From positions 18,674 to 82,673 of the forward strand of contig CAYZOT010000005.1 of the NCBI GenBank assembly GCA_964480515.1: a stretch of 64,000 nucleotides of DNA, given 5' to 3'. How positions within the stretch are numbered: the first letter of the stretch is position 1; every line of letters begins with the position of its first letter. The translations under genes were made by a program, and so were the position numbers. Positions 13,760 through 46,687 of this stretch are shown piece after piece. The notes beneath the pieces are model-generated. The model was given only the letters and a program-made list of their open reading frames with translations. It was not told the origin of the DNA and did no database searches. The stretch is from an uncultured Gemmatimonadota bacterium (lineage in GTDB: Bacteria; Gemmatimonadota; Gemmatimonadetes; Palauibacterales; Palauibacteraceae).

Positions 13760-15775
13760 ATGAAGACGGTGGCGGTTATTCTGATCAGCGTCCTTGTCAG
13801 CACGGTTCAAGCGCAGGAAAGCGATCACTTTACGGATATGGACGTCTTTGGTCTTGAGTGGGTGGCTAATCCCCAAATCTCGCCCGACGGAGGTTATGTA
13901 GCCTACGTCCGAACTTCACTCGATGTTATGCAAGACCGGAAACGATCTGAGATCTGGATTATCGAGTCGGGCGGCTCAGCCCATCGTCGAGTCGCTGCTG
14001 GTAGTTCGCCGATCTGGTCTCCTGCCGGTGACAAGATGGCTTACGTGAGTGACGGACAGATACACGTTCGATGGATGGACACGGGCGAGACGGCCACACT
14101 AACTCAATTGCTCAAATCGCCAAGGGCGATTTCCTGGTCACCGAACGGACAACACATCGCTTTTAATATGTTGGTGCCGTATCCGGCTCCAAGCCTTATC
14201 GATCCACCTAGTCCTCCCCCAAACGCGACATGGGCCGACCCGCCAATCATGGAAGATCGATTTAAGAACCGTCAGGATGGCGTAGGCTATCTTGATTTTG
14301 GTTATGATCACCTGTTCGTCGTGTCGGTGGAGGGTGGTACAGCTGTTCAGGTGACTAGTGGTGATTACCAACACAGTGATGGGGCGGTATGGACACCTGA
14401 CAGTAAGCACCTCGTGTTCTCGTCGAATCGCACCGAAGACGCCGTACACGATTACCGGAATTCTGAACTCTACATGGTTTCAATCGTCGACCAAAGCGTT
14501 ATCAGGTTAACGGAGAGGGCAGGGCCTGATCACAGTCCAGTTGTTTCGCCTGATGGCCAGCACATTGCGTTCTTGGGTTTTGACGATCGTATTCGCACCT
14601 ATCAGGTCACACAGTTGCACGTGATGGATCTTGATGGCGGCAACAAGCGAGTGCTCACAGCTGATCTCGACCGGAGCGTATCGAGTCCTGTTTGGTCAAC
14701 TGATGGGAATGGAATTTACTTCCAGTATGATAGCGAGGGGAACTCGAAGATCGCTTTCATGGATCTCGACGGCGACGTCGAGATCTTGGCTCATAATGTT
14801 GGTGGAACTTCCTATGGGCGACCGTACGGAGGAGGAGCGTTTAGTGTGGCCAACGATGGGCGTTTCGCGTTCAACCAAACACGTCCTGAGTATCCGGGTG
14901 AGTTGGCGGTTGGGTTCAGGGATGGTTCGGTGCCTCGGCGTATCACGAATTTAAATGACGATCTACTCGCCGGAAAACGACTTGGTCAGGTTGAGGAGAT
15001 TTGGTGGGAGTCATCTTTTGACCAACGTCTTATCCAGGGTTGGATAGTAAAACCTCCTGACTTCAATTCCGATCGGCGCTATCCACTAATTCTTGAGATT
15101 CACGGAGGCCCCATATCGAACTACGGCGATCGTTTCTCTGCCGAAATGCAATTGTTGGCGTCGTCAGGGTACGTTGTCCTCTACTCCAACCCCAGAGGTA
15201 GCACGAGCTATGGGGAAGAATTTGGAGATCTGTTGTACCATAACTATCCCGGGAATGACTATGATGACTTGATGTCTGGAGTAGACGCGGTCATAGACCT
15301 CGGCTACATCGATGAAGACAACCTGTTCGTAACGGGCGGAAGTGCTGGTGGAATCATGTCAGCTTGGATCATTGGGAAAACTGATCGATTTCGGGCTGCG
15401 GCAGCTCAAAAACCGGTGGTGAATTGGTACAGCAAAGTGCTGACTGCGGACAACTGGTTTGGGTATTTCAACTCTCGGTATGAAGGACTTCCTTGGGAGG
15501 ACCCTGAAAACTACCTCAAGTTCTCACCCATTTCGTTGGTAGGTAACGTCACGACACCCACGCTTATAATTACAGGAGAAGAAGATCTTCGTACCCCTCT
15601 GTCCGAGTCGTATCAACTCTTTCATGCACTGAAGCTCAGGAAGATCGATACAGCAGTGGTGCGTTTGCCGGGAGCTTCTCACGATATGAGTCGTCGACCG
15701 AGTCAGCTCATCGCGAAAGTTGCTAACATTGTGGCCTGGTTCGACCGGTACCGTGGGCAGCGGGTGACAAGTTGA
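13760..15775 (+). CDS. S9 family serine peptidase with TolB-like propeller (close paralogue of the 50334..52415 gene)
   Basis: Signal peptide MKTVAVILISVLVSTVQAQ and GAGGAGG RBS. Contains WSPAGD/WSPNGQ/SPDGQ repeats, EIHGGPISNYGDRFSAEMQLLASSGYVVLYSNPRGSTSYGEEFG and the GxSxG nucleophile elbow GGSAGG. Confidence 0.85.
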   Translation: MKTVAVILISVLVSTVQAQESDHFTDMDVFGLEWVANPQISPDGGYVAYVRTSLDVMQDRKRSEIWIIESGGSAHRRVAAGSSPIWSPAGDKMAYVSDGQIHVRWMDTGETATLTQLLKSPRAISWSPNGQHIAFNMLVPYPAPSLIDPPSPPPNATWADPPIMEDRFKNRQDGVGYLDFGYDHLFVVSVEGGTAVQVTSGDYQHSDGAVWTPDSKHLVFSSNRTEDAVHDYRNSELYMVSIVDQSVIRLTERAGPDHSPVVSPDGQHIAFLGFDDRIRTYQVTQLHVMDLDGGNKRVLTADLDRSVSSPVWSTDGNGIYFQYDSEGNSKIAFMDLDGDVEILAHNVGGTSYGRPYGGGAFSVANDGRFAFNQTRPEYPGELAVGFRDGSVPRRITNLNDDLLAGKRLGQVEEIWWESSFDQRLIQGWIVKPPDFNSDRRYPLILEIHGGPISNYGDRFSAEMQLLASSGYVVLYSNPRGSTSYGEEFGDLLYHNYPGNDYDDLMSGVDAVIDLGYIDEDNLFVTGGSAGGIMSAWIIGKTDRFRAAAAQKPVVNWYSKVLTADNWFGYFNSRYEGLPWEDPENYLKFSPISLVGNVTTPTLIITGEEDLRTPLSESYQLFHALKLRKIDTAVVRLPGASHDMSRRPSQLIAKVANIVAWFDRYRGQRVTS

Positions 15776-20325: not shown

Positions 20326-21237
20326 CTAACCCAATTGAGCTAGGTATTGACCAACAAAGTCGCAGTCGACCAGCTGCGAGAACGCTTCCGTCAATTTCTG
20401 TGTTATAGGTCCGGGAATCGCTTCATCCTGAAGCGGTTTCTTGCTGAATGATCCCACGGGGCAAACACACAAGCTTGTCGAAGTGATGAAAGCCTCATCA
20501 GCTCTGTACGCATCGAATGGTGTGATATCGTCTTCCACGACTGGAATCGTGAGCTTGTTTGCCAGTTCGATCACCGTTTGGCGACTAATCCCCTCTAATA
20601 CGTATTGACCCTTCGGCGTATAAATTTTTCCGTTTCGGACTAAGAATGGATTACTGCCTAAGCCCTCGCAGATAAAACCGCGAGTGTCGAGCAGGATGGC
20701 CCAGGCCCCCGGACTGTGTTCCTGAACTTCGTTGTGTGCAATCGTCAGATTTAGGTAGTTGCTACTCTTTACGTTTGGGCTCAGACATTCCGGTGGGATG
20801 CGTCGAACTGACGGGAACGCTACGTCCATCCCGTCTCGATAAAGAGGTGCACGTGCTTTCAAGGGTAGGGGAGTGCACTCGATAACTACCGTCGGTGACG
20901 TCATTGCAGCTAAAGGATCATTCGGACCTCCGGAAACGCGGTGGAAGACCCAATAGTCTTCGTTAGGGCCGAGGAGAGGGAGATTTTGTTCGGTTACTTC
21001 TAGTGTCAGCTGAATGACTTCATCGGGCGAAAGGCCGATGTCCAGGTCCACGTACTTGAGTGAGTGGAAGAGTCGGTTTACATGTTCGGTCAATTTGAAG
21101 ATCTGGCCGTTGAACGTCCGAGCTGCGTCAAATACCCCGTTTCCGTAGGTGAACCCTGTGTCCCGAATCGAAATGCAAGCCTGGCTTTCCGGGATGATCT
21201 GTCCATTAAAATAGGCGACGCGTTCGTTGGTTGTCAT
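20326..21237 (-). CDS. Class IV (fold type IV) PLP aminotransferase (branched-chain/D-amino-acid aminotransferase family)
   Basis: 303 aa. MTTNERVAYFNGQIIPESQACISIRDTGFTYGNGVFDAARTFNGQIFKLTEHVNRL is the typical class IV N-terminal region. It lies 6 nt downstream of the preceding gene and 10 nt upstream of the BNR gene. Confidence 0.8.
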   Translation of the reverse strand: MTTNERVAYFNGQIIPESQACISIRDTGFTYGNGVFDAARTFNGQIFKLTEHVNRLFHSLKYVDLDIGLSPDEVIQLTLEVTEQNLPLLGPNEDYWVFHRVSGGPNDPLAAMTSPTVVIECTPLPLKARAPLYRDGMDVAFPSVRRIPPECLSPNVKSSNYLNLTIAHNEVQEHSPGAWAILLDTRGFICEGLGSNPFLVRNGKIYTPKGQYVLEGISRQTVIELANKLTIPVVEDDITPFDAYRADEAFITSTSLCVCPVGSFSKKPLQDEAIPGPITQKLTEAFSQLVDCDFVGQYLAQLG

Positions 21238-21243
21238 CGACTC

Positions 21244-23388
21244 TTAGCTGTTCAGGGTGACTGAGACCCCAGGGCTTGGGGTCTCCAGGTTTCCGGTGTC
21301 ATCCACTGCACGGCTTAGTAGGGTGCTGGATTTACCGTCTGGAACAGGTGACCATTCAAAGCTCCAATTTTCTCGACCATGAGCGGGATGCCAAGTAGCA
21401 CCGCCATCGGTCGATATCTCGACGCCAGCAACGATGCCGCCGCCGCTATCCGATGCGCTTCCGCGAATCGTGATGTTGCCGTTTACAGGGGAACCTTCTG
21501 ACGGAAATTCAATTGAAGATCTTGGCGTAGTCGCGTCCGTCGACGCCGTAGCCGGAATTAGATCAGACTGCATAGTGGTGGGCTGAACCCCCATGTCGGC
21601 GAACAGGTTCAACGTTGCCTGTTGAATGTTTCGGTCTGGACCGTTGGGATCCTCACCGACTCGAGTGGAAAACCCGTTTTGTCGTTCTGGAGGAACTCCT
21701 GTTTCTGTGTCGTGATTAGCATCTAACCCCCACGCCCATTGCAGCGTGCCAGATCCAAATACTAGTGCTCCACTCTCATGGCGGTACATGACAGCGTTGT
21801 GGGTCGCCGATGCTGCTTGGCACGCGTCCATAGCCGGATAACCGCACCAGTAAGTGTTTGTCACAGTCGTAGATGAGACTTGAAACAGACCTGGCGGACG
21901 GAAGTTGTTGTCCATGTCTGAATCCCACTCATGGCCAAGCATTCCCTTAATGGAAACAAAGCGTTCCCCAGGGCCAAGATTGGCCACCTCGGTGTTTCGC
22001 CAAAAGCGGAGTTTTGAGAATTGTTCGTCGGCGATTAACGGGTCGTTCCGCCAGGCGTTGACGGTGAAGAGTGTTCCGATTAGCGCATTTTCTGGCCACG
22101 GGCCCTCTGGATTCATGGATCGGTGATCACGGAATGTCCCCGTCCAGATGCCAGGCTCCGGGTCCATCTTCGTTGCGCCGTCCGGTTCCTTATAGGTGAC
22201 TAGGGTCCGGTACGGTTGGCCTGACCCGTCAATGCTTTCTTCCCATCGCACTTTCCAGAAGACCGCATTTGAGCTAAAGAATGCTAGATGGATGCCGGCA
22301 TCTCGTGCTGCTTCAACATTCCGACGTTGTTTTCCCGTCCAATACTCATCGTGTCCGACAGCCATGAAGACTTTATGCTCGAGGAGTTCGTCACCAAGAC
22401 GTTCTACATCCACACCAGTTATGTAACTTACATCGTACCCATTTCGTTCGAGCCATCGTACCATGGGGTATTCTGAGTTGAATACTGCATTTACGGCCCG
22501 ATAGTGGCGTGTCTCAAACGGTCGGTTGTAGCTGACCTTGTAGGCGCGCGGCTCACCACCGTGTAACCGGTCTCGCACCGGATTGTACTGGCCGTACACG
22601 CTGTGTCCGCCAAACCGGTTGTATGCCTGCCATGTTATGTCCGAAGTCTGAAATAGCATTTCAGATGCCCCCTCATCGTCTCGGACGATGAAGTAGATAT
22701 GACTAGCGCGAGGTTCTACCAGGGCGTTTTCCGAGCTTCCTCTTAACCGATCCCAGAGTGGGTCACCTTCTGCGCCCAGGGGAAGGTCTTGTGGTGCAAA
22801 AGCATCATTGGGCCACCATTCACCCTCTAAGGGGTCCTCGCGAACCAGTCGTGCAAAATAGATGCCTGAGGTCGCGTCAGTCGGCGTATCCCAAGATGCT
22901 GAAACAGCCCAGTTACCACAGTCGAAGAGGGGGGCCTCCGCGGTTACCACAGCACCGGCCTCGTTCAACACGGGAATGGGGGCGTTCAAACAATCGGGCT
23001 GAACCTGTGGTAGTGTTGCAGAGGGCTCAATTGTGTCAATTCGCCGAGCTCCCATGCCTCCATAGTAACCCATACGGTAGATGTCGATTCGATAATCATC
23101 GGAATCAGTATCAATCTTAAAATGGATGGTCTCTCCTTGAGCGATGCCGATCTCATGACCAAAGCCTTGGATGCTTGGGTCACCATACCCATTGATGTCC
23201 CATTCCGTCGATGGTGCCCCAGGTAGGCAGTTTTCTGCGACAATTTCATTGGCTGGTGCCAAGCAGTGGTTTGCTTCTGATACTGTGGTGGCACAGGCAA
23301 AAAAGAGTGGCGTCAGCACAATGGCGGAGATAGTAGGCTTTGTAGTCATCTGAAAAACATCCTGTTGGACGAAGGAGCGTTGGTCCAC
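21244..23388 (-). CDS. Secreted protein resembling the N,N-dimethylformamidase large (beta) subunit-like family, with C-terminal Ig-like domain
   Basis: 714 aa with a signal peptide. Motifs recalled from DMFase-beta-like family proteins are present: TWQAYNRFGG and GHDEYWTGKQRRNVEAARDAGIHLAFFSSNAVFWKVRW. The C-terminus ITIRGSASDSGGGIVAGVEISTDGGATWHPA looks Ig-like (Big-type). Family assignment is from memory of motif patterns only. Confidence 0.4.
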   Translation of the reverse strand: MDQRSFVQQDVFQMTTKPTISAIVLTPLFFACATTVSEANHCLAPANEIVAENCLPGAPSTEWDINGYGDPSIQGFGHEIGIAQGETIHFKIDTDSDDYRIDIYRMGYYGGMGARRIDTIEPSATLPQVQPDCLNAPIPVLNEAGAVVTAEAPLFDCGNWAVSASWDTPTDATSGIYFARLVREDPLEGEWWPNDAFAPQDLPLGAEGDPLWDRLRGSSENALVEPRASHIYFIVRDDEGASEMLFQTSDITWQAYNRFGGHSVYGQYNPVRDRLHGGEPRAYKVSYNRPFETRHYRAVNAVFNSEYPMVRWLERNGYDVSYITGVDVERLGDELLEHKVFMAVGHDEYWTGKQRRNVEAARDAGIHLAFFSSNAVFWKVRWEESIDGSGQPYRTLVTYKEPDGATKMDPEPGIWTGTFRDHRSMNPEGPWPENALIGTLFTVNAWRNDPLIADEQFSKLRFWRNTEVANLGPGERFVSIKGMLGHEWDSDMDNNFRPPGLFQVSSTTVTNTYWCGYPAMDACQAASATHNAVMYRHESGALVFGSGTLQWAWGLDANHDTETGVPPERQNGFSTRVGEDPNGPDRNIQQATLNLFADMGVQPTTMQSDLIPATASTDATTPRSSIEFPSEGSPVNGNITIRGSASDSGGGIVAGVEISTDGGATWHPAHGRENWSFEWSPVPDGKSSTLLSRAVDDTGNLETPSPGVSVTLNS

Positions 23389-23524
23389 ATTGACTCAGTA
23401 TCCAGAACCCGAGGCGAGCCCCGCAAGACTCGAATCCTGATGGATAGGTGGTTCGCCCGAAGCCAGACCGCGGAAATATACTTCAACCGGAAGCTCGATT
23501 GTCCATGAACAAGGATAGGTTGGT

Positions 23525-24472
23525 GTGACAGAGTCCCGCACAGCGAATCAAGCAATGCTCGCGCCGCGTTATATGAACATCCCCACGTTCATGCGTGCGC
23601 CCATTATCGACGATCCAGAAGATTTCGACATTGCCATGGTTGGAGTCCCCTATGATGGAGCAGTAACTAACCGGCCAGGGGCGCGACATGGCCCACGCGA
23701 AGTCCGGAATGCGTCAAGCATGATGCGCACGATCCACCCAACGACTCGCGTGAATCCATTTGACACATGCCGGATTGGTGATGCCGGTGACGTTCCGTTC
23801 ACACGTGTTTACGAACCTGAGGCTGCGCACGGAGACATCGGTCAGTTTTTCGGTTGCCTCGCCGACGCCGGAGTGGTTCCGCTCGCGATTGGTGGTGACC
23901 ACTCTATCACGCTTCCAATCTTGCGTACCATTGAGGCAAAGGAACCGATTGCATTGATCCATATCGATGCACACACAGATACGTGGGACGAATGGATGGG
24001 TTCTCGCTACAACCATGGAACCCCCTTTCGTCGAGCTATAGAGGAGGGGCTGATTGATCCGTTGCGGACGATTCAGATTGGCATTCGGGGCGCACAGACT
24101 TCCAGTGAAGGTTGGGCGTACTCGGAATCGAATGGCTTACGTGTCGTCTATATGGATGAGGTCACCAGTTTGGGTATTGAATCGGTAGCAGAGGAGGCCA
24201 GAAGTCTAGTAGGGAGTCATCCAACCTACATCTCTTTCGATATCGATAGTCTGGATCCGGCTTTCGCGCCTGGTACAGGTACTCCCGAGGTGGGCGGGTT
24301 CACTTCGCGCGAGGCTCTCACACTCATTCGGAGCCTCAAAGGACTTCAGTTGGTCGGTGCAGACATGGTTGAGGTGGCCCCTCCGTTTGATCCGACAGGA
24401 AATACGGCACTTGTTGGGGCGACGATCACTTACGAACTGCTCTGTCTTCTGGCGGCCGCAGCGTCTTCGTGA
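23525..24472 (+). CDS. Ureohydrolase of the arginase/agmatinase family (agmatinase/guanidino-acid hydrolase-like)
   Basis: All arginase-fold Mn-binding motifs are present: GGDHSITLPILR, IHIDAHTDT and SFDIDSLDPAFAPGTGTPEVGGF. An agmatinase-like N-terminal region NRPGARHGPREVR is also present. Confidence 0.9.
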   Translation: MTESRTANQAMLAPRYMNIPTFMRAPIIDDPEDFDIAMVGVPYDGAVTNRPGARHGPREVRNASSMMRTIHPTTRVNPFDTCRIGDAGDVPFTRVYEPEAAHGDIGQFFGCLADAGVVPLAIGGDHSITLPILRTIEAKEPIALIHIDAHTDTWDEWMGSRYNHGTPFRRAIEEGLIDPLRTIQIGIRGAQTSSEGWAYSESNGLRVVYMDEVTSLGIESVAEEARSLVGSHPTYISFDIDSLDPAFAPGTGTPEVGGFTSREALTLIRSLKGLQLVGADMVEVAPPFDPTGNTALVGATITYELLCLLAAAASS

Positions 24473-25227
24473 TTAACCCGCAGTCCGAAGTCGATGTTCA
24501 GGTTGAAAGGGGTCAACTGAAAGGTTGGTCAGTGCAGGCTTATAGGGAGCTATTGAGTAAAGTGGGAGATGAATCATTTCCGTGTACATTCGGCACACTC
24601 GCGGCCAAGAAGAAACAGATCTTTTTGGCTTTCATCGAATCAACTAATCCACGTGTGGTAACGGATCGGTTAGTGGAGGTGCTTACCGAGTTCGCAGAGT
24701 TTATTCGACCGTTGCCTCTAGTCGAGGCCTCGATGCGTCCGCTCGCGATTCTCCTCCTGCCACCGCCGGAGTGGCTGACGATCGAAGACTATTATCATCA
24801 CAGTTGGCGTCTAGTCGCAGAGGTTATGCATCGGGATCCTGACCCTTGGCCGGACCGACTTCCCTCTGATCCTGAATTACCAGACTGGTCGTTTTGTTTT
24901 GGTGGGGTGCCGTTTTTTATCAATTTCAAGACGCCGTATCACGAACGTCGGCGAAGTCGTCGTTCGCTTCATGCGTATACTTGGTTGGTCCAGGCAAGAG
25001 AAGGTTTTGATCTTATTGCAGGAGATACAGTTCAGGGCCGTGCAGCACGGCGCGTGATTCGTAAGAAGCTTTCCTCGTACGATGAAATGCCAATCTTCCC
25101 GGCCTTGAATCATTATGGGCGTCCGGAAAACCTCGAATGGAAACAATATTTTGTGCCCGAGGGTCACGAGCCGATAACTGACAAGTGTCCGTTGAGCATG
25201 GATTCCCGGACTGCGTTGCGCGGATAA
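24469..25227 (+). CDS. Hypothetical protein, possibly YqcI/YcgG family (haem-dependent N-oxygenase-like, DcsA/GntA-related)
   Basis: 252 aa. The start overlaps the ureohydrolase stop (ATGA). Features reminiscent of the YqcI/YcgG family are FPCTFGTLAAKK near the N-terminus and WSFCFGGVPFFINFKTPYH mid-protein. Assignment is tentative and needs a profile search. Confidence 0.35.
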   Translation: MINPQSEVDVQVERGQLKGWSVQAYRELLSKVGDESFPCTFGTLAAKKKQIFLAFIESTNPRVVTDRLVEVLTEFAEFIRPLPLVEASMRPLAILLLPPPEWLTIEDYYHHSWRLVAEVMHRDPDPWPDRLPSDPELPDWSFCFGGVPFFINFKTPYHERRRSRRSLHAYTWLVQAREGFDLIAGDTVQGRAARRVIRKKLSSYDEMPIFPALNHYGRPENLEWKQYFVPEGHEPITDKCPLSMDSRTALRG

Positions 25228-26067
25228 TCAGTAGCTAAGACACTCTGGTCCTTCGCCTCGAACCCACGCGGCAAGCATCTGCCATTCCGGATCATCTTTG
25301 GAGGCCCAACGGCGAGGACCGCCGTGAAAACCGTCACCGCCGTCTTCAGAGGAAAGCGGGTGGGTAAGGAATCGGCTGAGCATTGGATGCCCGGGCTCGA
25401 TGTATCGCCGGACGATTGCAAAGTTCCCTCGAGATTCCTCTTGATTCCAGAAGTCTCGATCCTCTGGGATCCTGCGTGCAAAGTTTCGCGCCCCGCTATC
25501 GTGGCAGTGAACACACTCAACATCACCCGGTCGCTTATCTAAGAAAATCCGCTGTACACATTCCTGAAAGAACTGAAAATCTAACCGCGGTGGGGTGTCG
25601 TTGGGGCTTGGATTAACTGGGTCCGCTGCCTGAACCCATTTAGCCATCGCCTGCCATTCGGGGTCGGTTTGAGACTCGAAAAACTTGCCCCCCACATGAA
25701 AAGGAGATCCTCCGGAAGATACGACCAGTGCTTTACGGAGGAGCCTGCTCCGTGCTGGATTTCCAGGGGTCACGAGCCTTGAGACGATCTGAAAATTTTG
25801 GCGTGATTGTTCTTCAGACCAAAACACTGTTCCGTCAGGATTTTCGTTCAGTGCTTGGAGCCTAAGTGGAGTGCCTTGCTCTGCATGGCAGGTGACACAG
25901 GGGGCTCGTCCAGGACCATAGCCACCACGGGATGCGAGAAAGATTGGTTCGACCACCTCTCGGTACTGTTCGAAGCTTAGTGGTTCCTGGGCCGTACCAT
26001 TGTCGACAATGCTGAACACGAATAAGACCAGAGCCCCGCAGAAGAGCTTATTGGGATCTCTAATCAT
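25228..26067 (-). CDS. Di-haem c-type cytochrome, secreted
   Basis: 279 aa with a signal peptide and two CxxCH motifs (CVTCHAEQG and CVHCHDSG). The start overlaps the stop of the upstream YVTN-propeller gene (ATGA). Confidence 0.6.
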   Translation of the reverse strand: MIRDPNKLFCGALVLFVFSIVDNGTAQEPLSFEQYREVVEPIFLASRGGYGPGRAPCVTCHAEQGTPLRLQALNENPDGTVFWSEEQSRQNFQIVSRLVTPGNPARSRLLRKALVVSSGGSPFHVGGKFFESQTDPEWQAMAKWVQAADPVNPSPNDTPPRLDFQFFQECVQRIFLDKRPGDVECVHCHDSGARNFARRIPEDRDFWNQEESRGNFAIVRRYIEPGHPMLSRFLTHPLSSEDGGDGFHGGPRRWASKDDPEWQMLAAWVRGEGPECLSY

Positions 26068-27116
26068 GGGACTACCACCGTGTGGTTACGCTTCGGGGTC
26101 TGGCCAACTTTAATGCGGGTGATCTCCTTCATGAGTTGGGTATCAATGACCGAAACATCCTGAGACCCTGCATTGGCCGCGTAGAGGTATCGGCTGTCTG
26201 GAGTCATGGTGAGCCAATCCGGTGTATGCCCCACCTTGATTCCCCCAAGATACGTCAGGTCAGGAAGTGACCAGGCGTAGACGTGACCATTGGGTTTACT
26301 CGTTGACCACAACTGTGACCCATCGGGTGATACAGTCAGTCCGTGTCCTGGGGAGCCCTGTAAGGCGTCGTTGGTGATCTGTGAGATTGGCAGTTCTGGC
26401 ATGGGGAGCTTATCTACGACCACCCGTTTGTTGAAGTCTATGACATAGACGCCGTGATAGTTGGAGATCTGAACGAAGATGTGTTTCGTGGAGCCGTCTT
26501 GATTGACTTCAAAGGCCATTGGGCGCACCCCACCATCGGCATAGCCTCCAGTCGATCGACCGCTGAAGTGCAAGGACCATACTGGCTCGTCAATCGCTGT
26601 ATCGATGATAGTCAGTGTCCGTGCGCCGATCATACCAGCAGCAATGTGTTTACCATCAGGCGTGATGAAGACATTGTGCACGCCTCCCAATGTAGGAATC
26701 GACTTGATGACTTTGTTCGCTTTAATGTCGATCACATCGACGTAAGCGCCATCGGCTACGATTGCTACGTAAACCTTCGATCCATCGGGAGTGATTGCTA
26801 TGTTGTTCGGTCGGCCCGATAGTGGGATCTTCCCGGTGACCGACATGAGTTTCCACGGAACGATATCGAGCGTTCGGTCAATTTCATTGCTGAAGTATAG
26901 GGTGCTTCCGTCTGGCGCCGAGGTCACTCCATGTGCTTTCGGAATGCCATGGATGATCTCCACGACCTCGTTGGTCTCAGGATCGATGATGTGAACGTTG
27001 TCTCCCGCAGCATTTGTTTGAATGATTCGCACGGTGCCTTGCTGTGCGTAAGCTGGCATGGCGATCAGCAGGACTGCGATCACAAGCGATGAGAATCGCT
27101 TAGGTGAACTCATCAT
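26064..27116 (-). CDS. Secreted YVTN-type beta-propeller repeat protein (lactonase/cytochrome-d1-like propeller)
   Basis: Start moved to the MMSSPKRFSSLVIAVLLIAMPAYAQ signal peptide, which has a GGGGGGA RBS (ORF-track start 27194). Repeated x-Y-V/A-x-N-x-x-x-x-x-V-S/D-V-I-D blades are present (KVYVAIVADGAYVDVIDIKANKV and YLYAANAGSQDVSVIDTQ). Confidence 0.6.
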   Translation of the reverse strand: MMSSPKRFSSLVIAVLLIAMPAYAQQGTVRIIQTNAAGDNVHIIDPETNEVVEIIHGIPKAHGVTSAPDGSTLYFSNEIDRTLDIVPWKLMSVTGKIPLSGRPNNIAITPDGSKVYVAIVADGAYVDVIDIKANKVIKSIPTLGGVHNVFITPDGKHIAAGMIGARTLTIIDTAIDEPVWSLHFSGRSTGGYADGGVRPMAFEVNQDGSTKHIFVQISNYHGVYVIDFNKRVVVDKLPMPELPISQITNDALQGSPGHGLTVSPDGSQLWSTSKPNGHVYAWSLPDLTYLGGIKVGHTPDWLTMTPDSRYLYAANAGSQDVSVIDTQLMKEITRIKVGQTPKRNHTVVVP

Positions 27117-27260
27117 CTTGGTCCCCCCTAAGTTTATGATGGAGTGGCGCCCAGTTTTGCGTGCCATGAACTCCACTTGAATCCAACGTCTCAATATGGT
27201 TGTGCGATTAGAGTAGGGTAGTTGGCCGGAATGTCGGTAGGCCAGCCCTCGGTTCTTGGA

Positions 27261-28534: not shown

Positions 28535-30658
28535 TTATGTAGTTGTATCATTTGACTTCATGTTATTCATGAACCAAGTGAGGATGCGCTCGGAAACATC
28601 CATTAAAAATTTCGGTTCTCGCGGACCGTGAGGGGTTCGCGGATACACAATCATTTCCGTTGGGACATCTCGTCGGTCAAGTGCTCGATAAAACTCCTGA
28701 CCTTGAGTGAACGGGACCCTCAAATCCTCTGCGCCGTGAATTACTTGCGTCGGTGTCACGACCTTAGCGATGTGATACATGGCAGAGTGCCGCTCGTATC
28801 GTTCATAGTCTTCCCAAAATTCAACTCCCATGTGACCGACCAGATAGTCCTGAATGTCCGTGGTGGTGGTCATTGAAATGAGATTTGGAAGTCCGGCTCC
28901 CATACTTGCCGCTTTGAACCGATCCGTCTGAGTGACGGCCCATGAGGTCATATAGCCGCCATAACTCCACCCCATCAGGAGGAGTTGGTCGGCATCAACG
29001 ACTCCCATCGCTATGACGTGATCGACCCCGGCCATGAGGTCTCGAAAGTCACCAAAACCCCAGTCCTGGAAATTTGCGTATCGAAAATCTTTCCCATAAC
29101 CCGTTGACCCACGAGGATTTGGTCGAAGAATAGCGAAGCCTTTCTGAGCAAAATACTGCAGCATGTATATCGAAGGTGCTCCTGTGAATCCTTGGCTGAA
29201 CACCCCCCCGGGCCCTCCGTGCACATTTAGGATTAGGGGTACACTTTGCCCCTCTTGGTAATCGACGGGGTAGGTAAGAAGACCCTCAATTTCGAATCCC
29301 TCGGTCGAAGTCCACGAGGTGAGTTCAGTCCGACCCATCAAAGGTCGAGGAATATCTTTGTGGATATTTGTGACTTGAGTTGGGCTGTAGGTACGCGTGG
29401 GCGAAACAAACACGTCCCATGGTTCGTCGGACGTCTGGTAAGTAAATGCCATATGCTCACTATCAGTGCTTAATGAGACGGAACCAACAATCCCGTCGCC
29501 ATACGAAATGTAGTGTAGTTCGCTCCCATCGATGGGTACGGAAATCACGTGTCGACGAGTTCCCAGAGATTCAATCAGGAGAAGGCTTTGAGAATCACCG
29601 GACCAGCCGATAATAGATGCGCTCCTGTTGGGGGTGTCGATTGCCCGGCCCTCACCGCCAGTTGCAGGTATCACATAGAGGTCACTAAGTCCTATGGGTT
29701 CAGGCTGGTCCCCGGTCGACACATAGGCGATCCACTGTCCGTCATGCGACCATACAGGACGTCTTTCAATGCCAGGCCCGGTAACCAAGTCGGTCATCTC
29801 GCCGAAAACCAGTGGTTCAGGGATTTCAGCATCAGTCTCGGGTTGGCTTTCTTCATGATTAGCCAGCATCTCCGTGATTTCAGATGCTGTGGGTACCGTC
29901 ACGGTCGCGATATCACCGCTTAGTCGGGCAGTGTTAATTCGGGGATCTTTTTGGTGCGAAAACACGATTTGAGTTCCATCCGGAGCCCAACTAAACCCCG
30001 TCACGTGAAAGTCTCCTGCAGTCAGCCTGAGGGATCTCACGGATTCCGTTCGAGCTTCAGGTAACGCAACAACGTACAGGTGTGAAAACTTGTAGTTTCG
30101 GTCGACTAGAATTACGTCTCGTTTTTCTTCTTTGGCGGTTTTCTCTGCGGAGGTCTCTGGGTCGCGCATCAGGAACGCGATACGGGAACCATCAGGTGAC
30201 CAGCGATATGTGTCAACTGAGGCTTCAGTGGTGGTGACTTGACGTCCTTCACCGCCGGAAAGCGGGAGGACCCACACCTGGTTCATGGGGGTGGACCCCT
30301 CGCTGGAGCGTGACGTTGTGAAGGTGAGCCAATTCCCATCGGGTGAAAACTGCGGATCACTGGCAGAGTTTCCCCCCCGTGTCCATTGTGCCGCGCGTCT
30401 CCCCTCTGAGTCTACCATCCAAATATGACTTAGATACTCGGACTTTGGTCCTTCCATAAGAGGTTTTCGTACCGCATAAGCGATGCGAGAACCATCAGGG
30501 GAGATCGCTGTACTCCCAACTTGGTGAAACCGCATACTGAGTTCGGGTGTCCAGCTCCAAGTTTTCTCTTGGCCGGAGATCTCTGGGGCGATCAAGATTA
30601 GCGCGAGTACCAAGAAAGAGGTGATATGGGCGCGTCGTTCGAACGAGAAAGAGGCCAT
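28535..30658 (-). CDS. S9 family serine peptidase with TolB-like propeller, secreted
   Basis: 707 aa with signal peptide. Contains SPDGSRIAF/SPDGNWLTF/WSPDGSRIAF repeats, the GxSxG nucleophile elbow GWSYGGYMTSW, and the catalytic region HGAEDLRVP...PRTPHG. Confidence 0.85.
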   Translation of the reverse strand: MASFSFERRAHITSFLVLALILIAPEISGQEKTWSWTPELSMRFHQVGSTAISPDGSRIAYAVRKPLMEGPKSEYLSHIWMVDSEGRRAAQWTRGGNSASDPQFSPDGNWLTFTTSRSSEGSTPMNQVWVLPLSGGEGRQVTTTEASVDTYRWSPDGSRIAFLMRDPETSAEKTAKEEKRDVILVDRNYKFSHLYVVALPEARTESVRSLRLTAGDFHVTGFSWAPDGTQIVFSHQKDPRINTARLSGDIATVTVPTASEITEMLANHEESQPETDAEIPEPLVFGEMTDLVTGPGIERRPVWSHDGQWIAYVSTGDQPEPIGLSDLYVIPATGGEGRAIDTPNRSASIIGWSGDSQSLLLIESLGTRRHVISVPIDGSELHYISYGDGIVGSVSLSTDSEHMAFTYQTSDEPWDVFVSPTRTYSPTQVTNIHKDIPRPLMGRTELTSWTSTEGFEIEGLLTYPVDYQEGQSVPLILNVHGGPGGVFSQGFTGAPSIYMLQYFAQKGFAILRPNPRGSTGYGKDFRYANFQDWGFGDFRDLMAGVDHVIAMGVVDADQLLLMGWSYGGYMTSWAVTQTDRFKAASMGAGLPNLISMTTTTDIQDYLVGHMGVEFWEDYERYERHSAMYHIAKVVTPTQVIHGAEDLRVPFTQGQEFYRALDRRDVPTEMIVYPRTPHGPREPKFLMDVSERILTWFMNNMKSNDTTT

Positions 30659-35564: not shown

Positions 35565-37712
35565 TTAGTTATTGTCTGAGGTGCTTATAGGGCTCAGTCG
35601 ATCCTTCATAAAATTGGCAGTGGCCTCGAAGGCGGCCAACCAGTTCCGGTGAAGCAGAAATCCATGTACTTCGTCAGGGAAGACTAATTGCTCAACCTCT
35701 ACGCCACGTTGCCTAAGCATTTCTAGCAGGTCCACAGATTCTGAAAACGGTACGTTTCGATCATCGTCACCATGAATGAGGAGAACTGGTGAGCGCCACC
35801 CATCGATCCACCCCATTGGGGAAGACTCGTAAGCAAGACGTGCGAATTCTTCGTGTTGCTCAGGTTGGTAGGAGGGAACAAAGTTTTGGACGCACACGTT
35901 CCAATCGTGGCACCCATGGATGTCGACGCCCGCTGCGAACAGGTCCGAGTTACGCGCGAGACCAAGGGCTGTCAGGTATCCACCGTACGACCCTCCCCAT
36001 AAAGCGATCCGGTTGGGATCCACATCACTTCGAGAACCAAGGAATAACCCTGCAGCCACAACGTCTCGGTATTCGCTAGCGCCGCGAGCTCCATAATCTA
36101 GCGCCTCACGGAACTCCATTCCGTATCCAGTCCCACTACGGTAGTTGACTGATAAGACAACGTAGCCGCGGCTCGCAAAGTATTGATTCAAGGCATATGC
36201 GTTATGGTAGTATCGGAGATAATGCCACCCCAGCAGCATCTGACGCCGTGAGCCACCATGGAAAAAAATGATGGCCGGTTTACGCTCTTCTGGATTAATC
36301 TCGGGGGGGAGGAATAATTGACCGTGGATTGGTAGTAGATCTTCAGACCCGAAGACAACCTGTTTGGGCGTAACCAGCTCTTGATGGGGAAATCGGCTGG
36401 GCATGAAGTCATGTATAAGTGGTCGCCTAGTCCCTCCTGCAGGTAGCACCTCGGCGTGTGCGGGCGTTGTAGCGTCCGAAGCAAGGAATGCTAATGTTTG
36501 CCCATCAGCAGTTACAGCTGCCCCCCATTCTATGCCGTCGCCGGAAGTCAAAGCTTCGGGCGCTTCGTCCATTGTCACTCGCCATAAATGTCGGCGATCA
36601 ATGTCATCTTCGTTCGATGAAAAGTATACCTGGCGTCCGTCTGTAGAAGGGAGAACGTGTTCGACCTCGAAATCTCCCGGCGTGAGTAGAGTGGCTCCAC
36701 TTCCCGTAATTGGAATCGAGTATAATTGAGTCCAGCCCTGTCTCTCCCATGGGAAGACGAGGTGGTCTGATGAAAGCCAGACCAACTGTGGCCCCGTTAT
36801 CGCATGAAAGGCACTCCCTTCTCCCGGGGTTGCCTTCCAAATTTCTCGTCCGGTCCCTGAACTCACGTTAGCAATGCGGATGGACCAAGGGAGTGCGGAA
36901 CGAACGGGTGAGAAGGGTAGTTGTCCACCCCGATTAGGGATCCGAAGAAACGCGATTTCGCTTCCGTCAGGTGACCATGTTGGCGAACCGTCACGATCCA
37001 AACTGGGGTCTAGATAGCGAACTGTTCGGTGTGGTAGATCAAATACGCCAACGAAAGAGTGGTCCCCACGGTTGCTTACAAATGCGAGTTTGTCGCCTGT
37101 CGGAGACCAGGTTAAAGATCCAGCGCTCCCTCTTATAGTGAACAGAGGTGTTGGATCGGCTCTCCCCGCGAGTGGGGTTGCGAAAACCTGTCCTCGACGG
37201 ATGAACGCCAGTGTTCTTCCATCAGGTTTTATTGCTGGCGAGGCGCCATCGGCAATGGCTTGGGTTCCTCCATCGAGAGAGGTGACCCACAATGTCTGTG
37301 TGGCCGGCTCTGGTTCGGATCTCGGGTTTGGGATCTCGCCGGAACGGTTAGGCCCTCCACCGCGCACAAAAACGATACGGCGTGCGTCTGGGGTGAAGTG
37401 GAGTGATAGCAGGTCTTGACCATCATCATCGGACCAATCAGTGAGCTTACGGCCGACAAAGTCTGGTCCTTCTGCAACCCAGATGTTGCGGGCACCTTGT
37501 TCATATCGAACCCAGGCGAACGCAGCGCCGTTGGGGGCGGCGACGAGATCGGTAGCAAAGGGAGCAGAAAGTATATCTTGGATCGAATAAGGTGTTTGTG
37601 CTTCTGCGCCGACCCCGAAGCCGCCTACGGCAATAGCAACTAACAATCCATTGCGAACGTCCAGTTCCACTTTCTGAAGTCGTTGGCTGTAGAGCTTGGC
37701 GTGACTCAGCAT
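35565..37712 (-). CDS. S9 family serine peptidase with TolB-like propeller, secreted
   Basis: Start moved to the internal Met (MLSHAKLYSQ...NGLLVAIAVGGFGVGAEAQ, signal-like), which removes a 62-nt overlap with the upstream GNAT gene (ORF-track start 37808). Contains the GxSxG elbow LWGGSYGGYLTALG, the catalytic region HGDDDRNVPF...DEVHGF, and WSPTGDKLAF/WSPDGSEIAF repeats. Confidence 0.8.
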   Translation of the reverse strand: MLSHAKLYSQRLQKVELDVRNGLLVAIAVGGFGVGAEAQTPYSIQDILSAPFATDLVAAPNGAAFAWVRYEQGARNIWVAEGPDFVGRKLTDWSDDDGQDLLSLHFTPDARRIVFVRGGGPNRSGEIPNPRSEPEPATQTLWVTSLDGGTQAIADGASPAIKPDGRTLAFIRRGQVFATPLAGRADPTPLFTIRGSAGSLTWSPTGDKLAFVSNRGDHSFVGVFDLPHRTVRYLDPSLDRDGSPTWSPDGSEIAFLRIPNRGGQLPFSPVRSALPWSIRIANVSSGTGREIWKATPGEGSAFHAITGPQLVWLSSDHLVFPWERQGWTQLYSIPITGSGATLLTPGDFEVEHVLPSTDGRQVYFSSNEDDIDRRHLWRVTMDEAPEALTSGDGIEWGAAVTADGQTLAFLASDATTPAHAEVLPAGGTRRPLIHDFMPSRFPHQELVTPKQVVFGSEDLLPIHGQLFLPPEINPEERKPAIIFFHGGSRRQMLLGWHYLRYYHNAYALNQYFASRGYVVLSVNYRSGTGYGMEFREALDYGARGASEYRDVVAAGLFLGSRSDVDPNRIALWGGSYGGYLTALGLARNSDLFAAGVDIHGCHDWNVCVQNFVPSYQPEQHEEFARLAYESSPMGWIDGWRSPVLLIHGDDDRNVPFSESVDLLEMLRQRGVEVEQLVFPDEVHGFLLHRNWLAAFEATANFMKDRLSPISTSDNN

Positions 37713-37746
37713 AGTGTTTAGGTACCCTTTTTGGGGTACAGATCGG

Positions 37747-38541
37747 TTATGATCGGGTAAGGAAGTAGTAGCAGGTGCTGGTCCCACGGTAGAGATTTTG
37801 TACAGCATACCCCCTCCTAAGATACTTCATGAACGCGTTTCGTACTGTCGCTCGCCATTGTACCAGATCGACATCTTCTTCTGTAGAGTCAGTGAGTTCG
37901 CCGGGGATTTCAATGAAGACCTCATCTCCCGAAGGCATTTCCTTTGATGTTGACCCCAGACCTGGTCGGGCGACAAGACAGTCTTTTTTGGGTGCTTGTT
38001 TGCTATCGAACCGTAAGGCCCCCTCAACCGCCCTGCGAGTCCGCCGACTTTCGAGGTCCCAGCGCACAATGAATCTGTCCGTTTCGCCCCCGACGTGAAG
38101 CAGGCTTCCCGTATCGGCACCGTACATGTTCGGAACGTAAGTCAGAATAGTGGCTCCGAGTCGGTTCAGGTTGAGGTGCGCATTTTGGGCAACCATTGGG
38201 TCGAACGTCCAGAACACTGTGCTAATCCCACGTGTCAGGAGTTCTTCGCGTTGGAATAATTTGAGGCGGCGACCTAATCCCTCACCGCGTGCGGATGAAT
38301 GCACTGCCAACATATGGGACCAGTGGCAGATCGTGTCTTCGAAATTTGCGAATAGTGAATAGATGAAACCTACTAGCGTGTCACCGACGAATGCTCCACC
38401 CAAGAAGCCCCCCGTTTTTTGCGATACTTGGAGAACTGAAGTGGGGGCAACTTCTGAGTAGCCTTCCCCCCAGGTTGCATTCTGGAGGTCTACGCAGGAA
38501 CGTAACTCGGCTAAATCCTTGAGTGTCCGAAGTTCGATCAT
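37747..38541 (-). CDS. GNAT-family acyltransferase (with C-terminal extension)
   Basis: 264 aa. GNAT motif A is present in HMLAVHSSARGEGLGRRLKLFQ (Q/R-x-x-G-x-G/A). The start abuts the stop of the upstream enolase-superfamily gene (1-nt gap). Confidence 0.5.
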   Translation of the reverse strand: MIELRTLKDLAELRSCVDLQNATWGEGYSEVAPTSVLQVSQKTGGFLGGAFVGDTLVGFIYSLFANFEDTICHWSHMLAVHSSARGEGLGRRLKLFQREELLTRGISTVFWTFDPMVAQNAHLNLNRLGATILTYVPNMYGADTGSLLHVGGETDRFIVRWDLESRRTRRAVEGALRFDSKQAPKKDCLVARPGLGSTSKEMPSGDEVFIEIPGELTDSTEEDVDLVQWRATVRNAFMKYLRRGYAVQNLYRGTSTCYYFLTRS

Positions 38542-42617: not shown

Positions 42618-42926
42618 CTATATAGCAATAGGGATAATCATAGAATTGTTTTGACGCCCGATCCTACGCGCTCGACATATTGAAAGGAAGGTCAGTGTCT
42701 TCATCCCCCCAGCCCCCTCCCCGAGTATGTGATCTCCCTAGGACGAAAATTCTTTTAGCCTTGGATTGTGAACCATAAGATACAGGATGAAACAGGACTT
42801 GAACAATTTTCACCTACCGTTTCCAACACGTTCCACGCCTCATAAGTTAAATCTCGGGCAATATAAGCCCACTCGTGGTGATTTGAGGCAGATTGCAGCC
42901 ACGCTAAACAACTCGCTAAAGAGCTA

Positions 42927-42970: not shown

Positions 42971-45900
42971 GTGTTTGTGTCAAACGCACGCACAACAAGA
43001 ATCCACCGTATTCGATCGTCCTTAGCTGAGCGTATTCTAGTGTTGGATGGGGCGACCGGAACGATGGTTCAGGATCTTCTTCTAGGTGAAGATGCATATC
43101 GTGGAGATCGATTCACTAATCATCCCACACCCCTCCTAGGAAATCATGACCTCCTGTCAATCACGCGTTCGGAGGATATGGCTGCCATTCATCGAGCCTA
43201 TCTAGAGGCGGGTGCTGATTTCATCACCACAAATACGTTCAATGCGCAGGAAATCTCTCAGTCGGACTATGGGACGGACGCCTTTGTGCGTGAGATTAAT
43301 GTTGCGGCTGCGGAAATTGCCCGAGGTCTAGCGGATGAGTTCACTCAGGCGGATGTGGCGAAGCCGCGTTTTGTGTTGGGGAGTTTGGGGCCCACAAACC
43401 AGACTGCCTCTCTCTCCCCCGACGTCGAAAATCCTGCCTTTCGTGCGGTCACCTTCGATGAATTGGTTGCAGCGTACCGTGAACAGGCCATTGGATTGCT
43501 CACGGGTGGAGCTGACGTGCTGCTCATTGAGACCGTTTTTGACACCCTAAACTGTAAAGCAGCGATCTTTGCGATCCTCCAACTTGCCGAGGAACTTGAA
43601 GAAGAGATCCCAATCGCGATATCGGGGACAATCACCGATCTTTCTGGGCGCACACTATCAGGTCAAACGGTTGAGGCATTCTGGATCTCGGTCCGGCATG
43701 CTGATCCGATTTTTGTGGGCCTGAACTGCGCACTCGGGGCCGTCGAACTTTCGCCCTACATCGCGGATCTTGCGAGAGTTGCGGAGACGAGCGTCAGCTG
43801 TCACCCCAACGCAGGCCTCCCGAATGAGTTTGGAGGCTATGACGATACACCTGAGCATATGGCTGACGTCCTTGGAGGCTTTGCGGACCGCGGCCTTTTG
43901 AACGTTGTCGGGGGGTGTTGTGGTACTGGCCCGGACCACATTAGAGCCATAGCTGATCGTGTAGCTGGTGTTTTGCCCCGTGTCCCTATCGAGGCAGAGC
44001 CTTTCCCACGATTCGCAGGACTTGAGCCTTTTGTGATCCGCCCAGAGACGTTGTTTGTGAATGTTGGTGAGCGGACGAATGTGACGGGGTCCGCACGTTT
44101 CGCACGGCTTATAGGTGAGGAACGTCGAGAGGAGGCGCTAGATGTGGCGCGGGATCAGGTGGATAGCGGCGCACAGATGCTCGATGTGAACATGGATGAA
44201 GGCCTGCTCGACTCCGCCGCAGAGATGACTGAGTTCCTAAACCTTATCGGGGTTGAACCTGACATCGCTCGTGTTCCGGTTGTCGTTGATTCATCAAAAT
44301 GGTCTGTAATCGAAGCTGGTCTTAAGTGTATCCAAGGTAGACCGATCGTGAACTCCATCTCCCTGAAGGAAGGGGAATATGAGTTTTTACAACAGGCGCG
44401 CCTGCTCCGACGTTACGGTGCGAGTGTGATCGTGATGGCCTTTGATGAAGAAGGACAGGCTGCCACAATCGAACGGAAAGTTGATATTTGTGCGCGTGCT
44501 TATCGGCTACTTACGCAGGAAGTCGGGTTCCGATCATCGGACATCGTGTTTGACCCGAACGTATTTGCAGTCGGAACCGGAATCCCTGAGCACAACGAGT
44601 ACGGAACTGCGTTCGTGGAAGCGGTACGTCGAATTAAGGAAGAGTTGCCCGGTGCGCTAACAAGCGGGGGCATCAGTAATGTTTCTTTCTCGTATCGTGG
44701 AAACGACGCTGTACGCGAAGCTATGCATTCAGCCTTCTTGTACCATGCGATCAGAGCTGGTCTCGACATGGGGATCGTTAATGCTGGTCGCTTGCCCGTT
44801 TACGATGATATCGATCCGGACCTCTTGGTCGCCGCCGAAGACGTGCTCTTTAATCGAACAAAGGATGCGACTGAGCGTTTGACCGACTTGGCGGGGACCA
44901 TCCGCGAGCGAGGTATGGAAGTTGTTGTTGATCACAGGTGGCGGGAACTCTCGGTCGAAGAACGGCTAAAGCATTCACTGGTCGAGGGGTTAGTCGAGTT
45001 CATCGAAGAGGATACTGAGGAAGCACGGCAGAAATTTGATTTTTCGCTCGAGGTTATCGAGGGGCCACTTATGGCTGGAATGAATCGCGTAGGCGATCTC
45101 TTCGGTAGCGGACGCATGTTCCTTCCCCAAGTCGTAAAGTCTGCGCGAGTAATGAAAAAGGCAGTGTCGTACCTCGTACCGTACCTGGAAGCTGAGAAAG
45201 CGATCGGTACGACGGGGGCGGCTGCATCGAAAGGAAAGGGTACCATTCTCCTTGCGACGGTAAAGGGAGATGTTCACGACATTGGCAAGAATATTGTAGG
45301 CGTTGTACTACAGTGTAATGGTTACGAGATTATTGACTTAGGTGTGATGGTGCCACCAGATAAAATTCTTGCAGAAGCCAAGGCGCACAGCGTCGATATA
45401 ATCGGGCTGAGTGGTCTCATTACCCCGTCGCTTGACCACATGGTGACAGTCGCGTCTGAGATGGATCGTGAGGGCTTCGAACTTCCACTACTAATCGGAG
45501 GCGCTACCACTTCCAGGAAGCATACCGCCGTGCGAATTGAGCAGAAGTACTCTGGGGCGACGGTTCATGTTCTCGATGCATCTCGAGCTGTGGGTGTGGT
45601 AGGAGATCTGCTCAGTGAAGAAAGATCTTCGGATTTTATCGCGAACGTCCGAGGTGAGTACGAAAAGATTCGTTCCGATTTTTCTGAACGTGTTCGTAGT
45701 CTGGTTCCATTTAAAAGTGCTTGCAAGAACCGGTTAGAGATCGACTGCTCGGCGTTTCCTCCTCAAGCCCCGCGAAAACCGGGTGTCCACGTTTTCGATC
45801 CGTATCCGTTAGACATACTTGTCGATTACATTGATTGGACACCGTTTTTTCGGGCATGGGAGATCAAGGGTCGCTACCCTGAGGTGCTCGAGGATAAGAC

Positions 45901-46687
45901 GTTGGGTAAGGCTGCGCGCACGCTTTTCGAAGACGCAACAAGCCTTCTTGATCGTATTGTCAGCGATGATGTCCTTACGGCGCGCGCCGTCGCGGGGCTA
46001 TTTCCTGCGGCCTCCCGGGGGGATGACATCGTGTTCTTCAACGATCTAGAAAGATCTGCGTCACTTGCGGTTGTCTCACATCTCCGTCAACAAATGAAGC
46101 GAAAGGGCTCCCGTCCCAATCTTTCGCTTACCGATTTCATTGTAGATGAAGGCTTGGGGATTCCAGATTGGGGTGGTGCTTTTGCCGTCACGGCGGGTAT
46201 TGGTCTCGATGAGTTTTGCGCGTCGTTTGAAGCAGAGCAGGATGATTACCAGAGTTTGCTCGCTAAGTCGCTTGCTGATCGGCTGGCTGAAGCACTTGCT
46301 GAGCATCTGCACGAGGTCGTTAGGAAGGACCTCTGGGGGTACGCACATGAAGAGGAATGCTCAAACGAAGAGCGCCTACGCGAAGCCTACGTCGGGATTC
46401 GGCCTGCGCCTGGTTATCCTGCGTGTCCTGATCATTCTCAGAAAGAGATTCTTTTTGAACTTCTCGATGTGCGTTCGAATACGGCGATTGAACTTACCGA
46501 ATCTTTCGCGATGATGCCGGCAGCTTCTGTTAGTGGTTGGTATTTTGCGCACCCGGAGGCGCACTATTTCGGAGTAGGCAAAATCGGTCGAGACCAGGTC
46601 GAAGATTACACCCGCAGGCGTGGGATCGAATCGTCGGAGGCCGAGCGTTTACTATCACCCAACCTCAGCTACGATCCGAAAGAGTGA
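42971..46687 (+). CDS. metH: Cobalamin-dependent methionine synthase
   Basis: 1238 aa with all four modules. The Hcy-binding module has [13 protein letters not shown] and the Zn-site [11 protein letters not shown] pterin-binding module follows. The B12-binding module has [14 protein letters not shown] and [10 protein letters not shown]. The AdoMet reactivation domain is present ([14 protein letters not shown]). The precise start (GTG 42971 versus nearby GTG/ATG) is uncertain. Confidence 0.95.

Follow-up and report, generated by a model that had tools for sequence, protein, structure and literature searches.

An overlapping pair of genes for an arginase-family hydrolase and a YqcI/YcgG protein, lying outside any natural-product cluster, raises the question of whether the two enzymes act in sequence, one hydroxylating a guanidino compound and the other hydrolysing the product. 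Such a pair, termed here ORF1 and ORF2 (open reading frames 1 and 2), is found in a stretch of 64,000 nucleotides (nt) of contig CAYZOT010000005.1 from an uncultured Gemmatimonadota bacterium, and the whole of this stretch is referred to below as the window. The original prediction, made from the letters of the window, saw in the genes a functional pair resembling DcsA and DcsB of D-cycloserine biosynthesis. The analysis presented here places both as new members of known families and the pairing as a case in which the genes of two ordinary enzymes lie side by side in a particular lineage; this is no proof of a new hydroxyguanidine pathway because it is limited to that one narrow lineage. The reading preferred, at a probability of about one half, is that of a lineage-specific operon in which two active enzymes of ancestral specificity are co-expressed rather than obligately sequential, since the active site of each appears to be that found in its unpaired relatives. 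The features on which the argument turns are the following.

23525-24472, + strand: ORF1, arginase-family ureohydrolase of the GpuA type, 315 amino acids (aa), PF00491, with GpuA as closest solved relative
24469-25227, + strand: ORF2, predicted YqcI/YcgG haem-thiolate guanidine N-hydroxylase, 252 aa, PF08892, AglA-like fold
24469-24472, + strand: GTGA overlap of the ORF1 stop and the ORF2 start, 4 nt, read from the sequence
23993-23995, + strand: Trp157 codon of ORF1, aligned with GpuA Tyr157 and GbuA Met161
24583-24585, + strand: Cys39 codon of ORF2, within the FPC motif; Cys39 corresponds to AglA Cys44 and is predicted to be the axial thiolate of the haem

Families and active sites of the two enzymes

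The assignment of ORF1 to the arginase family in the original prediction was correct, as a profile search against PF00491 gave 310.6 bits (E 1.3e-92) and the metal-ligand motifs are intact (GGDH at 123, DAHTD at 148 and SFDID at 237). The closest solved relative is the 3-guanidinopropionase GpuA of Pseudomonas aeruginosa (3nip; E 1.6e-111, 55% identity), followed by GbuA (E 5e-83, 46%) and proclavaminate amidinohydrolase (PAH; E 5e-74, 43%). GpuA and GbuA, for which these identities extend over the full length, and human GDAH (formerly AGMAT) share the length, architecture and metal-ligand motifs of ORF1. The clade is widespread, with more than 7,900 database proteins at E <= 1e-60, and its members closest to ORF1 (70 - 78% identical) come from Gemmatimonadota, Acidobacteriota, Rhodothermia, Anaerolineae and others and are labelled either guanidinopropionase or agmatinase by their sources. 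ORF1 deviates from the 90% consensus of this clade at only six positions, one of which is Trp157. The corresponding residues of GpuA (Y157) and GbuA (M161) are substrate-recognition residues (PMC10833137), and in an alignment of the 119 closest cluster representatives the position is occupied by Phe in 110, Tyr in six and Trp in three. Because Trp157 replaces the Tyr157 of GpuA while most clade members have Phe, the GpuA-like assignment of ORF1 extends to the type of reaction and not to an exact substrate. On this evidence ORF1 is probably a GpuA-type guanidino-acid amidinohydrolase.

A separate question, which concerns the substrate of ORF1 and not the organization of the operon, is whether it might instead be a canonical, putrescine-forming agmatinase (SpeB) unconnected to the chemistry of ORF2. 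It passes two NCBIfam agmatinase models, NF002564 (306.2 bits, cut-off 302) and TIGR01230 (207.6 bits, cut-off 174.3), and NCBI models would name it accordingly, but the first of these scores is barely over its cut-off and ORF1 is far nearer to GpuA and GbuA than to the solved agmatinases, which match at E 3e-60 or weaker. Moreover, a human enzyme of the same branch that had been annotated as agmatinase turned out to be a guanidino-acid hydrolase without agmatinase activity (PMC9772407), and a SpeB function for ORF1 is considered very unlikely.

For ORF2 the original prediction had suggested the YqcI/YcgG family from FPC and WSF-x-F-x-G-x-P-F segments, both of which are present (FPC at residues 37 - 39, WSFCFGGVPF at 140 - 149), and the profile search that it proposed settles the matter: PF08892 (YqcI_YcgG), for which the cut-off is 27 bits, is matched at 177.8 bits (E 3.4e-52), over profile positions 4 - 210 of 211. 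Among solved structures, its only relatives are those of AglA, which date from late 2025 and the chains of which match ORF2 at E ~1e-26. Structure prediction gave the same answer, in that an AlphaFold2 model built with 41 sequences (predicted local distance difference test score, pLDDT, 92.1; predicted template-modelling score, pTM, 0.91) had significant Foldseek matches in the PDB to AglA only, at E ~1e-15 and template-modelling (TM) scores of 0.76 - 0.84. ORF2 is not a GntA orthologue, since it scores 26.3 bits against the GntA equivalog NF041366, which has a cut-off of 145, and the two share no more than a superfamily. The statement that DcsA and GntA were the only characterised members of the family is outdated, as there are now six and crystal structures of AglA are available (PMC12866846).

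AglA, from argolaphos biosynthesis in Streptomyces monomycini (PDB 9ub3 and others), is the structurally characterised prototype of the family and allows the pocket of ORF2 to be read residue by residue. In AglA the haem thiolate is provided by Cys44, the propionates of the haem are held by Arg166, Lys196 and Arg200, a guanidine gate is made up of Phe152, Gln177, Arg179 and Phe182, and Gln228 contacts the backbone amino group of the substrate via a bridging water (PMC12866846). The equivalents in ORF2, which shares the sandwich fold but is only ~28% identical, are Cys39, the propionate binders Arg164, Arg194 and Arg198, the gate residues Phe150, Gln175, Arg177 and Phe180, and Gln226. All are invariant in 40 close homologues with the exception of Gln226 (39/40), and in the wider family Cys39 is found in 117 of 123 representatives, the remaining six being gapped at that column. 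ORF2 can therefore be regarded as a genuine member of the YqcI/YcgG family that has both the haem-ligand cysteine and the guanidine gate, and N-hydroxylase activity is predicted for it.

The residues at which ORF2 departs from AglA point towards the substrate. The changes K196R and K225E, and also T220R, make hydroxylation of free L-arginine by AglA possible (PMC12866846), and ORF2 natively has Arg194, Glu223 and Arg218 at these positions. Because Arg occupies the 194 position in 105 of the 123 family representatives and Glu the 223 position in 103, the pocket of ORF2 appears to be the family consensus and AglA the outlier. The match to the changes that enable turnover of free L-arginine suggests that the substrate of ORF2 would be a free amino acid with a guanidino group, for instance L-arginine, and probably not, as for AglA, a phosphonopeptide. 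The same type of substrate is used by another family member, ChmN of the chalkophomycin/graminine pathway, which according to the chalkophomycin preprint hydroxylates free L-arginine when a surrogate ferredoxin and reductase are supplied; the preprint also cites a haem-binding role for DcsA. The axial haem ligand of ChmN is Cys47. ChmN differs from ORF2 in that it co-occurs with SznF-like N-nitrosating enzymes and nonribosomal peptide synthetase (NRPS) genes, none of which are present in the window, and ORF2 differs from AglA in lying outside any biosynthetic cluster and in having no adjacent PDR/VanB reductase. One residue of loop L2, Leu222, at first looks peculiar to ORF2, as Arg is found in all 37 homologues outside the paired lineage (R222L). 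It is unique within the close clade but Leu occurs at this position in 27 of the 123 representatives of the wider family, and it was rejected as an exotic change, being weak evidence.

The overlap and the distribution of the pairing

An important consideration is how much weight can be placed on the overlap itself. The original prediction was right about a 4-nt overlap and translational coupling, but the sequence that it gave, ATGA, is found not here, where it is GTGA, but in a relative (L121) that is 82% identical. Both genes start with GTG; that of ORF1 follows a Shine-Dalgarno-like motif, whereas inspection of the sequence ahead of the ORF2 start found no such motif, and the latter start is backed by the N-termini of homologues (MIxxQxEV...). 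Overlaps of 4 nt occur in four of the 24 adjacent same-strand ORF pairs of the window, and two of the three others couple clearly related genes, namely a pyrroloquinoline quinone (PQQ) dehydrogenase with a cytochrome c, and prfA with prmC. For these reasons the GTGA overlap is a genuine operon signal, though not one that is rare in the window, and the relatedness of the genes joined elsewhere therefore lends some weight to a functional link between ORF1 and ORF2. The two features upstream of the operon are as follows.

23389-23524, no strand: divergent intergenic region of 136 bp between a DMFA2_C-like gene (- strand) and ORF1, presumed promoter region
23511-23515: AAGGA, Shine-Dalgarno-like motif 9 nt 5' of the ORF1 GTG start

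A scan of positions 23200-25500 found no promoter-like site and no match to the sigma-70 consensus, and terminator-like sites occurred in it at chance level only; the promoter would presumably lie in the intergenic region 23389-23524. No regulator gene was found at the locus and an Rfam scan gave no riboswitch there, its sole match being a SAM-II element 18 kb away. The GC content of ORF1 (0.55) and ORF2 (0.51) brackets that of the window (0.53), and composition gives no clear signal of recent horizontal transfer of either gene.

The distribution of the pairing was surveyed from both sides. On the YqcI side 35 loci, 14 from look-ups of the exact protein and 21 found by scanning a single genome of each species, were extended by eight distant plasmid or chromid loci, and L121 was fetched separately. 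An arginase-family gene within 8 kb of the YqcI gene was found among the surveyed loci only in L015, L008 and L009, and these, together with L121, all belong to the window's own lineage, with YqcI proteins 82 - 96% identical. Outside that lineage none of ~30 distinct loci has an arginase-family neighbour, as is also true of the eight distant plasmid or chromid loci. The genes of close ORF2 homologues (44 - 64% identical, mostly Gemmatimonadota) are unpaired and their surroundings differ, with an arginase-family gene in none of them within 8 kb; homologues of at most 62% identity are all of this stand-alone type. On the ureohydrolase side, tblastn was used to examine 80 metagenomic loci of 59 - 74% identity, of which 65 had at least 800 bp of downstream sequence, sufficient for a YqcI gene to be seen; a YqcI gene was beside the ORF1 relative in none of the 80, and these loci have no conserved neighbour of any kind that was found. 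Five further ureohydrolase loci (L116, L117, L127/L128, L129 and L130) also lack a YqcI neighbour, bringing the total to 0/85, and the nearest named Gemmatimonadota orthologues of ORF1 (74 - 75% identical) have another neighbourhood, without YqcI. Nor does Trp157 track the pairing, as the other relatives with this residue, P0044 (L116, 78% identity) and P0073 (L117), are without YqcI. Among ten multidomain YqcI proteins scanned, no arginase-YqcI fusion was found.

Because the pairing is absent from ~30 other YqcI loci and 85 other ureohydrolase loci, it most probably arose once, by rearrangement, in one lineage. The window comes from a marine Gemmatimonadota bacterium that is 96 - 98% identical to a Tara Oceans metagenome-assembled genome. 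Within the lineage the 4-nt overlap has been kept in four variants (GTGA in the window, L015 and L008; ATGA in L121) over a synonymous divergence (dS) of up to ~1.2 - 1.5, and the ratio of non-synonymous to synonymous divergence (dN/dS) is 0.07 - 0.10 for ORF1 and 0.08 - 0.13 for ORF2. Such values indicate strong purifying selection and rule out pseudogene formation or decay of either gene (dN/dS 0.07 - 0.13 overall), and the pair, with its translational coupling, is a stable feature of its lineage.

Co-expression or a sequential route

If the two enzymes are co-expressed without being obligately sequential, ORF1 would use its binuclear metal centre to convert a linear guanidino acid (for example 3-guanidinopropionate or 4-guanidinobutyrate) to urea and an amino acid. 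ORF2 would function as a haem-thiolate mono-oxygenase, in which Cys39 would ligate the haem, Arg164, Arg194 and Arg198 would hold the propionates, and Phe150, Gln175, Arg177 and Phe180 would position the guanidine, so that a guanidino amino acid in free form, L-arginine being the likeliest, is N-hydroxylated with electrons that may come from a ferredoxin system encoded elsewhere. Both genes would be transcribed from the divergent intergenic region with translation of ORF2 coupled through the GTGA overlap, and the cell would co-express the two in order to scavenge or process arginine and guanidino compounds. A number of observations sit uneasily with this reading. It is improbable that chance alone placed together two guanidino-acting enzymes whose genes overlap by 4 nt, both the pairing and the overlap persist across dS ~1.2 - 1.5, and the other 4-nt overlaps of the window couple functionally related genes in two of three cases. 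In addition, F157W in ORF1, at a known specificity position, and R222L in ORF2, in loop L2, are lineage-specific changes near the substrate sites and could represent co-adaptation of the two proteins.

These same observations are the basis of the principal alternative, a DcsA/DcsB-like route outside a natural-product cluster in which ORF2 N-hydroxylates a guanidino compound and ORF1 releases hydroxyurea. L-arginine or an acid of the 3-guanidinopropionate type would thereby yield an N-hydroxyguanidine and then hydroxyurea together with ornithine, beta-alanine or gamma-aminobutyrate. Adjacency and coupling are conserved in the lineage under purifying selection, related genes are joined by the other 4-nt overlaps, both pockets carry a lineage-specific change (W157 and L222), and D-cycloserine biosynthesis provides the precedent of a YqcI-family protein with an arginase homologue. 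The chemistry of DcsB in that pathway was reportedly established by Kumagai et al. in 2010 and 2012. The likeness to DcsA and DcsB, taken at the level of gene content, lies in a YqcI/YcgG gene adjoining an arginase-superfamily gene, and at that level it goes little further. Whilst adjacency and a coupling kept in the lineage survive from the functional pair of the original prediction, the comparative data (0/~30 YqcI loci, 0/85 ureohydrolase loci) do not bear it out; ORF1, with its six departures from the 90% consensus, is closely orthologous to GpuA-like enzymes that occur unpaired in hundreds of genomes, and the pairing is confined to one lineage. A hydrolase placed in a canonical clade with neighbours lacking an N-hydroxylase had been named beforehand as evidence against the pair, and a GpuA-like clade with 0/85 such loci comes near to it. 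As to the pocket changes, W157 recurs in the unpaired P0044 and P0073 and L222 is common in the wider family. There is also a mismatch of substrates, in that the pocket of ORF2 points to an alpha-amino acid, while the guanidino acids preferred by GpuA-type hydrolases lack the alpha-amino group.

The gene content of the window bears on the same question. A Pfam scan of ORFs of at least 200 aa across the 64 kb found no biosynthetic cluster and no NRPS, polyketide synthase or dcs-type genes. In the dcs cluster hydroxyurea is used by an O-ureidoserine synthase, a racemase and an ATP-grasp cyclase. None of these three was found among the scanned ORFs, nor were other genes for the use or export of hydroxyurea nearby, and the same ORFs include no ferredoxin or reductase gene that would provide a redox partner. 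On balance a sequential route is a tentative possibility that the evidence leaves on the unlikely side. In its more specific form the operon would be a self-contained primary-metabolic module, in which a haem N-hydroxylase and a GpuA-type hydrolase re-tuned by Trp157 produce hydroxyurea and an amino acid, and this is rather doubtful. If true, it would mean that a marine heterotroph makes hydroxyurea, an inhibitor of ribonucleotide reductase, or degrades N-hydroxyguanidines outside an antibiotic cluster, and a hydroxylate-then-hydrolyse module of this kind would be the first such route outside such a cluster and a possible oceanic source of hydroxyurea.

The enzymes might also be functionally linked without acting in sequence, for example as branches that run in parallel in the catabolism of arginine and guanidino acids and answer to a single regulator, or with the hydrolase clearing guanidino acids that would otherwise compete for or inhibit the hydroxylase. 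That the two act on the guanidino group and lie in one operon is in keeping with this, as is the amino-acid-scavenging lifestyle suggested by the peptidases, the aminotransferase IV and the amino-acid and solute symporters of the window. Stand-alone YqcI genes elsewhere are found with LysE-type exporters of basic amino acids and once with a urea-carboxylase-associated protein, which hints at arginine or guanidine housekeeping and not at antibiotic synthesis. However, with no regulator gene or riboswitch found at the locus, and with the pairing not conserved beyond the lineage, such a link is considered improbable. Co-expression of two enzymes that each retain their ancestral specificity thus remains the preferred reading. 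To our knowledge no physiological role has been established for stand-alone members of YqcI/YcgG, including those of the mostly Gemmatimonadota clade to which ORF2 belongs, and the value of the locus is that it offers a small and tractable pair of soluble proteins for learning what such enzymes do. The gpuA and gbuA genes of P. aeruginosa are not known to be adjacent to a YqcI gene.

Neighbouring genes and other contexts of YqcI

The gene divergent from the operon (21244-23388, - strand) adjoins the pair in every member of the paired lineage and encodes a secreted-looking protein of 714 aa that carries a Big_7 domain and, C-terminally, an N,N-dimethylformamidase-beta-like domain (PF20254, E 6e-95). 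On the other side, a 279-aa ORF without a Pfam match (25228-26067, - strand) contains two CxxCH haem-c motifs in internally duplicated sequence and overlaps by 4 nt a gene for a YNCE-type beta-propeller (26064-27194, - strand). Its stop codon abuts that of the YqcI gene, leaving no space for a terminator, and this arrangement is also kept in L008. An aminotransferase IV gene is located at 20326-21237, 2.3 kb upstream of the pair; a fusion of Aminotran_4 with YqcI (P0179) was considered as an explanation for its presence but the identity is a generic 27%. The partners seen in YqcI fusions comprise NRPS C, PCP and A domains, Aminotran_4, Rieske/ring-hydroxylase, methyltransferase and haem-oxygenase-like di-iron (HDO) domains, and the fusion proteins P0179, P0203, P0270, P0166 and P0304, which are representatives at 50% identity, include the Aminotran_4, Rieske, HDO and NRPS types.

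The remainder of the window contains five S9 peptidases, an M1 peptidase, the aminotransferase IV, PQQ dehydrogenases, symporters, a thiolase, metH and housekeeping genes, and its content is strongly that of proteolysis and amino-acid scavenging. The S9 prolyl-oligopeptidase paralogues, which have PD40 propellers, are at 3048-5024, 13760-15775, 28535-30658, 35565-37808 and 50265-52415, and the window also has a penicillin-amidase-like gene together with Na+-coupled symporters for solutes and for alanine. The SAM-II (SAM_alpha, RF00521) riboswitch noted above lies at 42874-42923 on the + strand (49.6 bits), ~50 nt 5' of a gene, itself full-length, for a B12-dependent methionine synthase (42971-46687); this gene is followed without a gap by an ORF for a fusion of homocysteine S-methyltransferase with methylenetetrahydrofolate reductase (46688-48544).

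A variety of contexts was observed for stand-alone YqcI genes elsewhere. On plasmids of Thioclava, Priestia megaterium and Bacillus cereus a gene for a LysE-family amino-acid exporter is immediately 3' of YqcI (L119 4908-6334, L120 5010-6369, L124 5929-7327), and the two genes overlap in both Bacillaceae records. The LysE pairing, seen in two phyla, hints that a free basic amino acid is the substrate of the stand-alone YqcI enzymes. In haloarchaea the YqcI gene adjoins one for a 'urea carboxylase-associated family protein' on a megaplasmid of Halorussus (L126 5289-6732), and genes for a sulfotransferase and an adenylyl-sulfate kinase on one of Halomicrobium (L118 2623-5720). In soil Gemmatimonadales (L005-L007, L017, L018, L020, L023 and L024) a same-strand GNAT (Acetyltransf_3) gene is located ~650 - 900 bp upstream of the YqcI match and a GGDEF/EAL gene a few kb beyond it, an arrangement that may be an operon or merely shared synteny.

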